From contig CBDCDZ010000004.1 in assembly GCA_965215565.1 (NCBI GenBank), positions 4,224,001 through 4,288,000 of the forward strand: 64,000 nucleotides of DNA, given 5' to 3'. The notes under the pieces are model-generated. The model was not told where the DNA came from, ran no database searches, and saw only the letters and a program-made list of their open reading frames with translations. The first letter of the stretch is position 1; the number at the start of each line of letters is the position of its first letter. The DNA is from Trueperaceae bacterium. GTDB lineage: Bacteria > Deinococcota > Deinococci > Deinococcales > Trueperaceae. A program made the position numbers and the translations under genes. Of the stretch, positions 27,051 through 33,898 are shown piece after piece.

Positions 27051-27204
27051 GAGGTGAGTGTACCACGTGCTATCTCAGACTCTGCAGTCGGTTGATGAGT
27101 AGAATACAGAACGGAGAATAAAGCGTACGCCGCAGCCTACCTTCTACATTCTTGCTCGTCTCTCGAGGACGTTTGTCCTCACCTACTTGGAGTAGACTGT
27201 CCCT

Positions 27205-27615
27205 ATGAAACGCGGTCTCAGTCTTTTAGCCATCCTCTTTTTACTCCTTAGTTGCAACGCTCCATCAGAAGGAAGTGCACAGGCCCAAGAGGCGCAGGGC
27301 GAGTCGGGGAGCAGCCCCACCGCCGTGCGCACCGAGTTGGAGGGCGAGCCTGCGCTGGGCGAGGCTAAGGTGCGCGTCTATGTCTTGGAAAATAACGAAG
27401 GTGTCTCGGGCGCAACCGTCGAAGTCACAGGCGATATGACCCACGCAGGCATGGCTCCGGTCACGGCTACCGCGAAAGAGGTCGGCGCGGGGCTCTACGA
27501 GACTGAGGGCTTCGAGTTCACGATGGCGGGCGACTGGCTCCTCACCTCCGAAGTGGTGTATCCTGATGGGACCGAAGTGGAAGATACCACGGCGCTGAGC
27601 GTACCTGGACAGTAG
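27205..27615 (+). CDS. YtkA/FixH-like lipoprotein (putative copper chaperone)
   Basis: Lipobox LLSC; GDMTHAGMAP, GLY and FTMAGDW motifs; ATG 6 nt after TAGACT. Confidence 0.8.
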   Translation: MKRGLSLLAILFLLLSCNAPSEGSAQAQEAQGESGSSPTAVRTELEGEPALGEAKVRVYVLENNEGVSGATVEVTGDMTHAGMAPVTATAKEVGAGLYETEGFEFTMAGDWLLTSEVVYPDGTEVEDTTALSVPGQ

Positions 27616-27626
27616 TTTGACCTGAT

Positions 27627-27947
27627 ATGAGACCTTCGCAAGACATCCTGAGAACTGCCTGCCGCGCAGGTAGAGGGGCGTTCTTCGCGTTTCTGCTGAC
27701 CTCGGCGCTCTTCGCCTCGCCCTTTTTGGCGGCGCAGCAGGATTTCGGACATACGCACCCAGAAGGCACGCCGCCGCATGTCCACGGCGTCTCGAGCGTC
27801 TTAGGTCACACACTTGTTACACCTGTCGTCACCTCCGTAGCGGTCAGCTTCGCGGTTATCTTTGTCTTATCTCTTACCTACACCTCTTTAGTTCTAGCTC
27901 CCCCTAGAAACCCCGCTCACGGGGTTCGCGCGCCACCTTTTGCTTAG
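27627..27947 (+). CDS. Small membrane protein with His-rich motif and C-terminal RAPP (putative arrest/leader peptide)
   Basis: Signal/TM segment, GHTHPEGTPPHVH, second hydrophobic segment, ends in GVRAPPFA*. Confidence 0.75.
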   Translation: MRPSQDILRTACRAGRGAFFAFLLTSALFASPFLAAQQDFGHTHPEGTPPHVHGVSSVLGHTLVTPVVTSVAVSFAVIFVLSLTYTSLVLAPPRNPAHGVRAPPFA

Positions 27948-28127
27948 CGTTTGACAGAGTCACACCTCTTTTTTAGTTTTCCACCTCTTGTGGACGACTC
28001 GAGCAACTCGAGCCTGTTCATAGATGTTGAGCCAGTGGAATAAGGTGTGAGGCTAGTCCCCGAGCTTCTCTAAGCTCGACTATCTTTACTCACCTCTTCT
28101 AATTCTAAGCAGAAGGAGTTTCATTCG

Positions 28128-28592
28128 ATGAAACGCATTTTCTTCGCGCTGATTCTATGCGGCGCGGCTTTCGGGGTGGCGTCGGCGCACGCCTATCTCG
28201 AGACTTCAAACCCTGCGACGGGCGCAACCTTACAAGCTGCACCCGAGCAAATCGTCCTGAATTTCAGTGAGCCTTTGGAGCTGCGCTTCAGCACCTTCAA
28301 AGTCGCCCCTCTGGAAACGGACGCCGCCGACCCGCGTGAGATCAAACTTGCCGCTATGGACCTTGTGGAAGAGGTTGTGGGAACAGACGAGGTGCAGTTA
28401 GAGGTGGACGTGCTCACCTCGGAGCGCACCGCTAAAGAGGTTGTGCTCGGACTGCCCGACCTCGCACCTGGCACGTACGTCGTCATGTGGCGGCTCCTCT
28501 CCACCGACACGCACACCTCGGACGACTTCGTCACCTTCACCGTCTCACCTGACGCGAATACATCTAGCACGGATACGTCCGCAGGGAATTAG
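28128..28592 (+). CDS. copC: Copper-binding protein CopC
   Basis: Signal then HAYLETSNP; LNFSEP; PGTYVVMWRLLSTDTH. Confidence 0.88.
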   Translation: MKRIFFALILCGAAFGVASAHAYLETSNPATGATLQAAPEQIVLNFSEPLELRFSTFKVAPLETDAADPREIKLAAMDLVEEVVGTDEVQLEVDVLTSERTAKEVVLGLPDLAPGTYVVMWRLLSTDTHTSDDFVTFTVSPDANTSSTDTSAGN

Positions 28593-29536
28593 TGCTCGCG
28601 CTCGTCAAAGCGAGCTTGCTCTTGGGCGCGGTGCTGCTGATTGGCGCGGGCGTCTTCGGACGTTTCGTCGCGCCGGAGCTGCGCGAAGAGGTCCGAACGC
28701 CGCTCCGTTGGGGCGTTCTGACGGGTGCAGCCGTGCTCCTTATCGGGAGCGCAGTGGACGTGACGAAGACCGTGAATAACGCGCTTGGCAGGCACGACGC
28801 CGCGTTTTTGCTCGAGTACATGCGCTTCACGCGCCACGGCAACGCGGTGCTCGTGCGGCTCGGGCTCGTCGTCGTCGTCGCGTTTTTCACGCTCAGATGG
28901 GCAGCTCCGAACACCGCACCCTCGTTCGCGCGGCGAACCAATCACGCGCTCTACCTCGTCTCGAGCCTCGGCTTACTCGCTACCTTTAGCTGGACGAGTC
29001 ACGCGGCGACGATGGGCGGCACGCCCCCCTTGCTCGCGGACCTCGCGCACTTCGCGGCGGCGAGCGCGTGGTCCGGCGCAGTGCTCTACTTGGCGCTCGC
29101 GCCGGTGTGGGGGGAGGGGCAGCGGACGAAGTTGAACCGGGCGCTCGCTAGAGTGTCCGCGCTCGGCTTAGCGTGCGTCGCGCTTCTCTTCGTCACGGGC
29201 GGCTACACCTCTCTCATTCACCTGCAAAACCCCGAACGCTTCGCCCAGTCACCTTACGGTCAGGCGCTCATCTATAAGCTGCTGCTCGTCGCCGTTATTG
29301 TCGGGCTCGCAGCGTATAACCAGCTTTGGCTCCTGCCTGCTTCGCTCAAAGGAAAGCTTACGCGGCGCTTCAGACGGGTGATGAGGCTCGAGGCGCTGAC
29401 CCTCGTCGCCGTCTTTATCACCACGGGTGTTCTCACCACGAGCGCGGTGCCCCACGAACCCGGTGTTCAACCCACCGCATTAGAAAACCTCACGACCTTG
29501 CTGCGCTACTTAGGCGCATTCCTCAAAGGAGCTTGA
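28592..29536 (+). CDS. copD: CopD-family copper transport membrane protein
   Basis: SHAA, HFAAASAWSG and YGQALIYKLLLV...N motifs; multiple TMs. Confidence 0.88.
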   Translation: MLALVKASLLLGAVLLIGAGVFGRFVAPELREEVRTPLRWGVLTGAAVLLIGSAVDVTKTVNNALGRHDAAFLLEYMRFTRHGNAVLVRLGLVVVVAFFTLRWAAPNTAPSFARRTNHALYLVSSLGLLATFSWTSHAATMGGTPPLLADLAHFAAASAWSGAVLYLALAPVWGEGQRTKLNRALARVSALGLACVALLFVTGGYTSLIHLQNPERFAQSPYGQALIYKLLLVAVIVGLAAYNQLWLLPASLKGKLTRRFRRVMRLEALTLVAVFITTGVLTTSAVPHEPGVQPTALENLTTLLRYLGAFLKGA

Positions 29537-29537
29537 C

Positions 29538-29969
29538 ATGACTACCCTCGCTAAGCTCGCCCTGACCCTTCTTTTCGCCCTCGGTGCGCTCGCCTTCGCG
29601 CACGAAACTCGTACCCTCGAGGCTGGCGACGGCGCGCAGTACGACGTGACCGTAGGATTGCTTAACGAGCCTATTTACAACACGGTGCGTACGGGTGTTG
29701 ACCTCATCATCCGCATGACGGCAGATGAAACGCCTGTGGAGAACCTGGAGAGCAGCCTTCAAGCCGACATCACCTCACCAGACGGCTCGGTAACTCGCAC
29801 CCTCACGCTCAGACCGCAGTACAATAAACCCGGTTACTACACTGCCGACCTCATGCTCGCTGAGCCTGGCACCTATGACGTGCGCGTGTACGGTATTATC
29901 GGCGAAATGGAGGTGGACGAGACCTACCCGCGCGAAGTCGCCGACATCAGCGAGATTCGCTTCCCGTGA
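29538..29969 (+). CDS. Secreted Ig-like protein with predicted N-terminal His (putative Cu-binding)
   Basis: AFA|HETR; VGLLNEP; PGYYTA...PGTY. Confidence 0.7.
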   Translation: MTTLAKLALTLLFALGALAFAHETRTLEAGDGAQYDVTVGLLNEPIYNTVRTGVDLIIRMTADETPVENLESSLQADITSPDGSVTRTLTLRPQYNKPGYYTADLMLAEPGTYDVRVYGIIGEMEVDETYPREVADISEIRFP

Positions 29970-30418
29970 TGAAAAACGTTTTCACTCTTCTGCTCTTCCT
30001 CAGCGTTAGCGCGGGTTTTTCTCACGCCGACCTGAAGAGCGCCACGCCTGGAAAAAACGCTGTCATAACTAAATTGTCTGGCGAAATCGTACTTAACTAC
30101 ACCGAAGCGGTAGAGGTTCGTTTCAGCACCTTCAAGGTTTACCCGCTCGAGGTCACGGGCGACTTGAACGAGCCGCAAGAGCGTCTGCGCATCAACGCCG
30201 CCGCTGCTGCGCTCATGAGTGAGGCGCTGGACGCAGAAGAGGACGAAGCGAGCCGCGCTGATATAGGCGTGCTGACCGAAGCGAGAACGTCGGACACGGT
30301 GACGCTTGGGCTTGCTGAACTAGGGTCCGGTTTCTACGTCGTGGTGTGGCGTGTCCTTTCGGCGGACACGCACACCACGACAGGTTCCTTTGTGTTCGAG
30401 TACGCTCCGAACGGGTGA
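29966..30418 (+). CDS. copC: Second CopC paralogue
   Basis: GFS|HADLKSATP; RFSTFKV; YVVVWRVLSADTH. Confidence 0.85.
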   Translation: MMKNVFTLLLFLSVSAGFSHADLKSATPGKNAVITKLSGEIVLNYTEAVEVRFSTFKVYPLEVTGDLNEPQERLRINAAAAALMSEALDAEEDEASRADIGVLTEARTSDTVTLGLAELGSGFYVVVWRVLSADTHTTTGSFVFEYAPNG

Positions 30419-30499
30419 GCTTAGTGGCAGAACCTCTGCACATCTCCGCGCGGTCCAGTTCAAAATCTCATATAGAGAGGAAGATACCTGTGAACATAT

Positions 30500-31031
30500 T
30501 TACAGAGACGCGCTCACCACCTCCGAGCGGCTCGGCATGGACCTCTTCTTCAGTGAAAAGACCGAGTGCCACCACTGTCACGGCGGCTTCAACTTCACGC
30601 ACTCGGTCAAGCACCAGAACAACGCGCAGTTCGTGGAGAAGTCCTTTCACAACACCGGGCTCTACAACGTGGACGGTCAGGGCGCGTACCCGACGGGCAA
30701 TACGGGCGTGTTCGAGGTCACGGGCAAGCGCGAGGACCTGGGCAAGTTTCGCGCCCCGTCCCTGCGCAACGTCGAACTCACTGCGCCTTACTTCCACGAC
30801 GGCAGCGCCCAAACCTTGGAAGAGGTGGTGCGCTCCTACGAGGCGGGCGGGCGGCTTTTGGAGTCTGGCGACTTTGTAGGTGACGGGCGCGCGAACCCCA
30901 ACAAGAGCGGCTTTGTACGCGGCTTTTCATTGAACGACGAGGAACGGCAGGACTTGGTGAACTTTTTGAAAGCGTTGACGGACGAAGATTTCATCACGGA
31001 CGAGCGCTTCAGTGACCCCTTCGCGGAGTGA
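30500..31031 (+). pseudogene. C-terminal half of an MbnH-like di-heme cytochrome c peroxidase/MauG-family enzyme
   Basis: GMDLFFSEKTECHHCHGGFNF, FHNTGLYN, FRAPSLRNVELTAPYFHDGS; only one CxxCH, no signal peptide, no good start; left boundary approximate. Confidence 0.8.
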
Positions 31032-32273: not shown

Positions 32274-32344
32274 AGAGGTCAGACGTGCGGGACGTTTGCA
32301 ACTGGCTCGCCCTGACGCGCAGCCCTAAAGTTAAGGAAGTAATT

Positions 32345-33898
32345 ATGGACGCGACTCAACACACACGCGCTCAGCGCACTTCACCAGGTCATAAACCGAT
32401 CGTCGAGCAGCCTAGAGGCTTCGACCTCTTCGCGCTCCCCGGTCTGCGCCGCTTCATCCGCTGGAAATACGCCCGCTTCGTCTTTCAACTCCCACTCCTG
32501 ATCCTCGCCGTGTTCGTTATCTGGGACGGCTTCGCCGGGCGGCAGGTTGCCCCGCGCAATATCGCCACGACGACGGTGTGGCTCCACTACCGAGGTTTAG
32601 TCGTGATCGCGCTGGCGCTCATCGGCAACGCCTTTTGCGCCGCTTGCCCCCTGATGCTCACTAGAGGTGCGACGAAGCGGTTGGAGCGCTTTTTGCCGCG
32701 CAAGTTGAGCTTTCCCAAGCCGCTCAAAAATAAAGTCCTCGTCACCGTTCTCCTCTTGTTCTTTTTCTTCTCCTACGAATACTTCGACCTCTGGGCGAGC
32801 CCTTGGCTGACCGCCTGGCTCGTCATCGCTTACTTCGGCGGCGCATTGGCTGTGGATACCCTCTTCCCGGCGGGAACCTTCTGCCGCTACGTGTGCCCCT
32901 TGGGGAACTTCAACTTCGCCTATTCGTCCGCCTCTCCGACGCAGATTACGGCGGTGGACCACGACATCTGTCGGAGCTGCGAGCACAAGCCGTGTCTGCA
33001 CGGACGCGACACCTACGAGACGAAATCAGCGCAGGATAAGAAGGGACACGTCGCCGCCTTCATCCCCCTCACCGACATCGTCCACGCGAACGGCACCGGG
33101 CACTTCCCCGGCTGCGAGACGGACCTCTTCGTGCCGACGATGCAATCGAACATGGACTGCACGAACTGCTTCAACTGCGTGCGTGCGTGCCCTTACGACA
33201 ACGTCGCCCTGACCGTGCGGCAACCAGGCTGGGAGTGGACGCGCGCACCTTGGAAAACGCGGGGGCGGCTGCCGCTCATGGTCATGGGCGTCTTGCTGAC
33301 CTTTTGGGGACTCTTAAACGCCGTGGCGATGACCGGACCTTACTTCAGCTTGGCGCAGTGGACAGCGCGCACGTTCAACACGCAAAACGAAGCCTTGCTG
33401 CTCGGTACGTTCTTTCTCGTGACGACGCTTGCAGGACTCCTCATCATGGGCGGCGTCGCCTACCTTGCAGACCTCTTAGGGCAGGGGAGAGCGAGCATCA
33501 AAGATTCGTTCCTACGCTGGGGTTACGTCACTGTGGCGCTCGGCTTCGGCTTTTGGGGGGCGCACTACCTCTTTCACTTCATGACGGGGGCTCTTAGCAT
33601 CGTGCCGGTGTTTCAAAACTTTTTTGAGGCGCGGGGCTTGCCCGTTGACCCCGACTGGCGGCTCGCGCAGATTATCCCGACTGACTGGCTCTTCCCGGTG
33701 GGCGCGGCGATCACGCTCTTCTACAGCTTTCTAGCGGTCTATGTAACCGTGCGTATCGCGCTTAGAGACTTCGGGCGGCGCGGCGTTTTGGCGATGTGGC
33801 CGCCGCTTCTGTTCGTGCTCCTCTTCGCGGCGGTGGCGCTTACCGTTTTAGGCGAGCCGATGGAGATGCGCGGGACGATCTTAGGACCGAGCTTCTAG
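32345..33898 (+). CDS. Membrane 4Fe-4S polyferredoxin (NapH/MauN/YccM-like)
   Basis: FCAACP, FCRYVCPLG, CRSCEHKPC and CTNCFNCVRACP motifs; many TMs. Confidence 0.85.
   Translation: MDATQHTRAQRTSPGHKPIVEQPRGFDLFALPGLRRFIRWKYARFVFQLPLLILAVFVIWDGFAGRQVAPRNIATTTVWLHYRGLVVIALALIGNAFCAACPLMLTRGATKRLERFLPRKLSFPKPLKNKVLVTVLLLFFFFSYEYFDLWASPWLTAWLVIAYFGGALAVDTLFPAGTFCRYVCPLGNFNFAYSSASPTQITAVDHDICRSCEHKPCLHGRDTYETKSAQDKKGHVAAFIPLTDIVHANGTGHFPGCETDLFVPTMQSNMDCTNCFNCVRACPYDNVALTVRQPGWEWTRAPWKTRGRLPLMVMGVLLTFWGLLNAVAMTGPYFSLAQWTARTFNTQNEALLLGTFFLVTTLAGLLIMGGVAYLADLLGQGRASIKDSFLRWGYVTVALGFGFWGAHYLFHFMTGALSIVPVFQNFFEARGLPVDPDWRLAQIIPTDWLFPVGAAITLFYSFLAVYVTVRIALRDFGRRGVLAMWPPLLFVLLFAAVALTVLGEPMEMRGTILGPSF

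Follow-up and report, generated by a model that had tools for sequence, protein, structure and literature searches.

Leader ORF and gene context

Does a small histidine-rich ORF that ends in RAPP control the copper genes behind it by arresting its own ribosome, and is copper the signal? The question was raised by a 106-aa ORF in the window, a stretch of 64,000 nucleotides from a Trueperaceae bacterium (contig CBDCDZ010000004.1), for which the original prediction had proposed a metal-sensing arrest leader heading a copC-copD operon. The annotated features, in window coordinates, were as follows.

27205–27615, + strand: YtkA-like exported protein with a lipoprotein-type N-terminus (Pfam YtkA, 7.6e-13), ending 11 nt before the leader
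27627–27947, + strand: leader ORF, 106 aa, member of the four-His/RAPP family, ending GVRAPPFA and stop
27675–27734, + strand: N-terminal hydrophobic segment (about residues 17–36) after Arg-rich residues, a signal peptide or signal anchor
27750–27785, + strand: four-His motif H42-x-H44-x6-H51-x-H53, putative metal site
27813–27896, + strand: second hydrophobic stretch (about residues 63–90) within the fixed-length spacer, TM character not conserved
27927–27938, + strand: RAPP codons, putative arrest site with Pro103 in the P site and Pro104 in the A site, by analogy with CruR
28128–28592, + strand: copC (Pfam CopC, 1e-19)
28592–29536, + strand: copD (Pfam CopD, 5.7e-18), its start overlapping the copC stop
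29538–29969, + strand: small exported Ig-like protein with weak YtkA similarity (E 0.005), downstream in 18/60 loci
29966–30418, + strand: second copC (Pfam CopC, 1.9e-15)
30504–30982 (region 30351–31031), + strand: 3' remnant of an MbnH-like di-haem peroxidase (tblastn with the protein of congener G001, residues 202–361 only, in two frames)

The ORF boundaries, the His cluster (GHTHPEGTPPHVH, residues 41–53), the terminal GVRAPPFA, the position of RAPP and the 180 nt between the leader end and the copC ATG at 28128 were all confirmed, as was the identity of copC and copD. The leader has one Cys and no CxxC, as had been stated, and this copy does have both hydrophobic stretches (Kyte-Doolittle maxima of 1.90 and 2.43 over 19 residues). 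It has the traits of the RAPP-leader class, being small, exported or membrane-bound, with RAPP close to its C-terminus and a co-oriented gene downstream. Across the six frames of the genome, 25 HxH-x6-HxH patterns were counted, and in this one only does R[AGSD]PP follow 44–48 residues on. No Pfam or NCBIfam family matched the leader above cut-off.

The predicted structure contained a helix at residues 5–35 and was confident for residues 1–60 and less so for the spacer (pLDDT about 96 for residues 31–50, 91 for 51–60 and 62–75 for the second hydrophobic stretch). With this model, Foldseek returned nothing below E 0.001, and the top match of the VIA fold search, at Z 4.0, was to unrelated helices. 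If Pro103 occupies the P site, 50–61 residues separate the His from the catalytic centre, compared with 13–40 for the second hydrophobic stretch. As the ribosome tunnel holds 30–40 residues, a stalled chain would have its His loop outside the ribosome, whereas most of the second stretch would still be within it.

That the leader heads the operon is less certain than proposed: copC-copD is directly downstream, but the end of ytkA precedes the leader by 11 nt in the same orientation, so the leader may not be the first gene. The same upstream neighbour was found in 25/66 family loci. TAnnnT hexamers lie 6 and 8 bases ahead of the ytkA and leader start codons (27193–27207 and 27613–27629), and no Shine-Dalgarno sequence was evident there. 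Leaderless starts are common in Deinococcota, and with these hexamers the leader may therefore have its own start; a search for a sigma-70-type promoter at the leader found none.

Beyond the MbnH-like remnant lie a membrane protein and then a 4Fe-4S membrane protein. The latter (32285–33898) is polytopic with weak NapH/MauN similarity, and it was downstream in 14/60 loci, often as the first gene. By tblastn, mbnP and the 5' half of mbnH had no match in this genome and were present in the congeners G001 and G002. Copper genes (CopC, CopD, MbnH-like, NosL, MbnP) were found within 1.5–2.5 kb downstream at 40 of 60 loci (33 with CopC/CopD/MbnH-like, 6 with NosL, 1 with MbnP); a further 12 had solely the 4Fe-4S membrane protein and 8 had none of these. 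Among the 60 first-downstream genes scanned, there was no multicopper oxidase, efflux pump or HupE/UreJ. In Bacillus, YcnJ, with CopC, CopD and YtkA domains, supports oxidases under copper limitation via copper import (PMC13344008), and the downstream genes here (CopC, CopD, YtkA, MbnP/H, NosL) would likewise serve copper supply.

Other cargo was also recorded. NosL-family genes take the place of copC after the leader, which then often ends in RDPP, in two genera (L065, L073, L077, L080, L081, L093). Exported, mostly His-rich proteins of 190–310 aa without a Pfam family often follow the leader (L038, L042, L052, L057, L067, L068, L071, L072), and some leaders precede DsrE or a periplasmic binding protein.

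Conservation and range of the family

The starting set was 30 copC loci from relatives, gathered without using the leader sequence. Upstream of copC, 7 of them (the window's own included) had a His-type RAPP-like ORF and 8 had a CxxC-type ORF; L009, among the CxxC loci, comes from the unpublished genome G035, and none of the conclusions depends on this locus alone. A profile built from the 7 His-type ORFs had matches in 58/128 Trueperaceae genomes, 44/79 of those of high quality, and in 24/36 genera. The same profile, run across the phylum, matched in 50/101 other Trueperaceae genomes and at 2 weak places (E 9e-4 and 3e-3) among 197 non-Trueperaceae genomes. To judge from sequence, the family is not convincingly found outside Trueperaceae among the genomes searched. 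Within Trueperaceae the His type is the usual form, and the copC clusters of other Deinococcota carry the CxxC type. The proposal of a His-type leader in Deinococcota thus holds at the level of the family Trueperaceae, and a phylum-wide family was ruled out in the genomes searched.

The conservation check suggested with the original prediction came out in its favour. Of 66 strong places, 63 parsed as HxH...HxH, a spacer of 44–47 residues and R[AGSD]PP; 2 were cut by contig ends and 1 had degenerate His. The arrest word in the 63 parsed copies was RAPP in 44, RDPP in 8, RGPP in 6 and RSPP in 5, all four being variants reported to permit arrest (PMC12992588). Among 1.84 billion representatives there were 118 matches: the spacer was 44–48 residues in 110 and 41 in one, and 7 were unparsed (4 with the His motif and no RxPP, 2 with altered His spacing, 1 spurious repeat protein). 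H42, H44, H51, R101, P103 and P104 were invariant in 102 aligned sequences, and H53 was kept in at least 90%. The tail after the arrest motif was at most 10 residues in 97/111, and CxxC was rare (1/118 representatives, 2/63 genome copies). The first hydrophobic segment was present in 103/110 relatives. The second had been put forward as an added TM, a view that did not survive the comparison: it reached KD 1.6 in 52/111 representatives and 32/63 genome copies, and it would be mostly within the tunnel at the stall. The spacer looks like a ruler, fixed in length and free in sequence.

As a control for circularity, a model of the N-terminal half, in which RAPP is unscored, was run; it was built from members first found with the full profile. 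It returned the same 66 places and one more, also ending in RAPP, with 4 weak matches besides. A pattern search across named genomes gave one close relative only. ESM Atlas features scored 0.96 to clusters with sparse Methylomirabilota labels, a feature score and not a sequence alignment. One member, P0133, is named Truepera radiovictrix by its source; the genome accession that we take to be that of T. radiovictrix was scored 0/0/0 in the Fig. 4E table.

Codon use at the putative P-site Pro was tabulated separately. CCA was found in 27/64 His-type and 8/11 CxxC-type leaders. Elsewhere in these leaders it makes up 48/524 Pro codons, and in this genome it encodes 14% of the Pro residues that open a Pro-Pro pair. 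The genus-averaged share of CCA at this Pro (27933–27935 in the window) was 0.32.

Predicted helix over the copC Shine-Dalgarno sequence

Folding of 27900–28160 predicted a structure more stable than that of shuffled sequences (z = -4.35, 0/200 shuffles as good), with the following parts.

27936–27947, + strand: helix 5' arm, the codons of Pro104, Phe, Ala and stop (pair probabilities 0.98–1.0)
27948–28104, + strand: intergenic RNA between the two arms, predicted to fold into a long nested hairpin and a small one at 28061–28078
28105–28118, + strand: predicted 3' arm (28105–28116) overlapping the copC Shine-Dalgarno sequence (28111–28118)

The 12-bp helix begins exactly at the A-site codon and is predicted to cover 6/8 bases of the copC Shine-Dalgarno sequence with a probability of about 1. 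The helix is also predicted in congener G001, where U-A replaces one U-G pair, as are the nested hairpins (z = -3.46); the comparison is of two congeners with a single one-sided change and is not true covariation. With a 30-base ribosome footprint blocked, opening the copC start region is predicted to cost 8.8 instead of 14.7 kcal/mol, and 0/200 footprint shuffles equalled this. With the footprint in place, the Shine-Dalgarno sequence re-pairs in other helices (unpaired probability at most 0.26 over 28112–28120), so the predicted opening is only partial. Because the stop codon is part of the helix, a ribosome terminating normally would open it for a short time too.

Opening gain was scored at 44/64 loci, excluding 3 without downstream DNA, 10 whose start was uncertain or which had an insertion or unrelated gene, and 7 with gaps above 260 nt. 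The gain was at least 2 kcal/mol at 17 loci, at least 3 at 15 and below 2 at 27; one locus had a loss of at least 2. In shuffled replicates, 4–12 loci gained at least 2 and 1–7 gained at least 3 kcal/mol, with the reservation that kin among the 44 loci are not independent. The modelled opening signal across the family exceeds the null, at about a third of loci and among kin that are not independent. Opening-type helices are built from different sequences in several genera. In G025, which has two leaders, neither had a clear opening gain (0–1.1 kcal/mol).

Two other candidates were set aside. An intrinsic terminator at the 28061–28078 hairpin was rejected for its weak T tail, such sites numbering 4 against 4.1 in shuffles. 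The ranking of cognate against non-cognate duplexes (mean rank 0.35) was discarded as helix evidence, being confounded by shared GC content.

Comparison with known leaders

CruR (Bp2923) of Bordetella pertussis belongs to Pfam DUF2946 (PF11162) and carries CxxC and RAPP 45 residues apart; its export signal is dispensable, a few homologues occur in Deinococcus, and CopC and MbnP/H are among the downstream genes (PMC9426467). Arrest of CruR, with a toeprint, has been reported (PMC12992588). The leader here shares with CruR an export signal, a metal motif at a fixed distance from a C-terminal RAPP, a long intergenic region and downstream copper-uptake genes. It differs in having four His in place of CxxC, and CruR works by way of Rho. 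A DUF2946 gene opens its operon, whereas the four-His leader is often behind ytkA.

Membership of DUF2946 was rejected, the leader having no PF11162 match and no CxxC. Among 102 members one matched PF11162 at E 0.069, and one His-type copy matched DUF2946 at E 0.003, below cut-off. DUF2946 was above cut-off in 4/128 Trueperaceae genomes, all of one genus, and in this genome there was none. The HMM comparison that had been suggested gave a mixed answer, with no family match but an hhalign alignment of the four-His and DUF2946-type profiles at 23% probability over 55 columns, in which the His loop was aligned to the H-CxxC region. CxxC/DUF2946 leaders of other Deinococcota and of genus g24 occupy the same place before copC clusters, match PF11162 and have a spacer of 41–43; the His before their CxxC lies 45–47 residues from the Arg, like H53 here, but their ligands are Cys. 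The cluster order in G025 and G150 is ytkA, His-type leader, 4Fe-4S protein, CxxC-type leader, Ig-like protein, copC and copD.

CutF of Rhodobacter capsulatus opens an anti-Shine-Dalgarno stem (PMC9973294); copper induces its stalling, and its export signal is needed (bioRxiv 10.1101/2025.02.05.636593). The likeness to CutF lies in a putative exported nascent sensor, a stall that here is predicted to open, in part, a stem over the downstream Shine-Dalgarno sequence, and the existence of His-only versions. CutF itself differs in using CxxxC and PPP, in being copper-induced and in serving a detoxifying oxidase. CutF-like clusters 14 and 17 are His-only (PMC9973294) but stand ahead of HupE/UreJ (Ni/Co) genes, not CopC/CopD.

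RAPP/RGPP uORFs are enriched before copper genes, 133 and 75 RAPP uORFs being listed before CopC-annotated genes, and seven Streptomyces leaders arrest in vitro, one of them with a predicted 3His+Met site (PMC12992588). SLIV_16130 and SLIV_18480 of Streptomyces lividans resemble the leader in a RAPP-type motif, which in the Streptomyces proteins arrests in vitro, in metal-related downstream genes and in a His-containing predicted site; SLIV_18480 differs in its four TM segments and 3His+Met site, and SLIV_16130 uses Cys and His. ApdA, ApdP and SecM use a RAPP/RAGP arrest that pulling force releases and a stall that exposes a downstream start, as proposed for the leader here; their targets are sec/yidC genes, and they lack a metal motif. 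The CruR/CutF-like design that was proposed is borne out by the export signal, the fixed-spacing metal motif, the RAPP end and the copper-handling context, and by analogy the leader likely works like CruR and CutF without belonging to DUF2946.

Mechanism and alternatives

RAPP arrest requires upstream sequence context. The leader peptide, with its hydrophobic N-terminus, would be targeted co-translationally, and by analogy with CruR and the Streptomyces leaders the ribosome would arrest at RAPP while the His site is empty, with Pro103 and Pro104 in the P and A sites. The stalled ribosome would cover 27936–27947 and so free the copC Shine-Dalgarno region in the folding model, the stall being the ON state. 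Folding of the His loop, driven by copper near or beyond the translocon, would pull the chain and end the arrest; the released ribosome would terminate three codons on, the helix would close and copC-copD translation would go off. Given a cargo of copper supply genes (CopC, CopD, YtkA, MbnP/H, NosL), the genes should be ON in low copper and OFF in high copper, as with CruR.

That the ORF is an arrest leader acting in cis is the part held with most confidence. It would be very surprising if it were instead a plain operon gene for a small His-rich protein, membrane-bound or secreted, that binds copper and works in trans, with RAPP incidental. Its place close behind ytkA, like an operon gene (25/66 loci), and the N-terminal 55 residues, predicted with high confidence, would suit such a protein, but the spacer is free in sequence and fixed in length, the leader gene is followed by a long structured gap, and RAPP-type words are otherwise excluded from proteomes (PMC12992588). 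That the stall turns copC on is, from the folding model, very probable. Less likely than this, though the most credible of the alternatives, is an arrest that acts mainly via Rho-dependent termination, as in CruR, with the helix secondary or reflecting plain translational coupling. By raw count, C exceeds G at 27800–27960 (C 24–28 and G 12–16 per 78 nt), the genome has a Rho_N match and most family loci have no clear helix gain; set against this is a predicted 12-bp helix whose 5' end coincides with the A-site codon and which the congener retains.

Copper is probably the ligand of the His site. An arrest leader that reads another signal, with copper irrelevant or secondary, was considered improbable; its His site would bind Zn, Ni or Co, or it would gauge secretion capacity as SecM and ApdP do. 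His-only CutF-like leaders precede the Ni/Co genes HupE/UreJ, so His alone does not imply copper (PMC9973294); some members stand ahead of His-rich proteins, DsrE or a periplasmic binding protein, and genus g24, with a His-type and a CxxC-type leader in one cluster, suggests that the two are not redundant. The 40/60 loci with copper genes speak for copper, secretion monitoring would not need four invariant His, and in most Trueperaceae genomes the four-His leader is the sole leader found at the copper cluster. The same leader could also work in the direction of CutF, copper prolonging the stall and turning the genes ON, and CopC and CopD were first named as resistance genes. A stall that opens a Shine-Dalgarno helix is indeed a CutF-type switch (PMC9973294), but the downstream genes are of supply or chaperone type (CopC, CopD, MbnP, NosL, YtkA), and a scan of 60 first-downstream genes met neither a multicopper oxidase nor an efflux pump; this direction was rated marginally lower still than a signal other than copper.

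The chain as a whole, in which a RAPP stall opens the copC helix and copper at the four His releases the stall and turns the uptake genes off, is the reading we favour with some reserve. A bolder and doubtful extension would have the four-His loop arise independently as a sensor without Cys, folding around periplasmic Cu(II) on the nascent chain and so pulling the ribosome off RAPP, with the His and CxxC leaders in the genus of G025 and G150 forming a two-input stalling gate for two copper states or two metals.

Significance

His-only RAPP/CutF-like leaders have been published, as have RAPP leaders ahead of copC (PMC9973294, PMC12992588), and the claim of novelty is narrowed accordingly by clusters 14 and 17 of the former and SLIV_18480 of the latter. 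The four-His Trueperaceae family itself was not described in the literature searched or among the uORF entries listed in PMC12992588, whose uORF list and supplements were partly readable and may hold an entry; 12 family motif strings gave no member among those listed entries. The family adds an unnamed compact group to the metal-sensing arrest leaders, and no new kind of regulation is established by it. Its design is clean: four His, a spacer of fixed length and free sequence, and a predicted anti-Shine-Dalgarno helix that starts from the A-site codon. Copper control has been shown for two such leaders only, both Cys-based and of opposite directions. A Cys-free member in a cultured host (P0133, Truepera radiovictrix) would allow metal-driven force on a nascent chain to be tested, and would also allow asking whether ligand type sets metal choice and direction.

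Leaders in series and a natural insertion

At L100 and L102 (G025 and G150), a His-type and a CxxC/DUF2946-type leader stand in series with the 4Fe-4S gene between them. On the minus strand of L100, a 12-codon ORF with a strong Shine-Dalgarno sequence lies between the His-type leader and the 4Fe-4S gene and overlaps the next start (ATGA). This ORF could relay translation to the 4Fe-4S gene; no opening gain was predicted for it.

In G002 (L097:2586–4300), a DDE transposase gene is inserted right behind the RAPP codons, so that the leader tail is extended and copC lies about 1.4 kb off. Part of the helix 3' arm persists ahead of copC, and the insertion represents a natural uncoupled allele.
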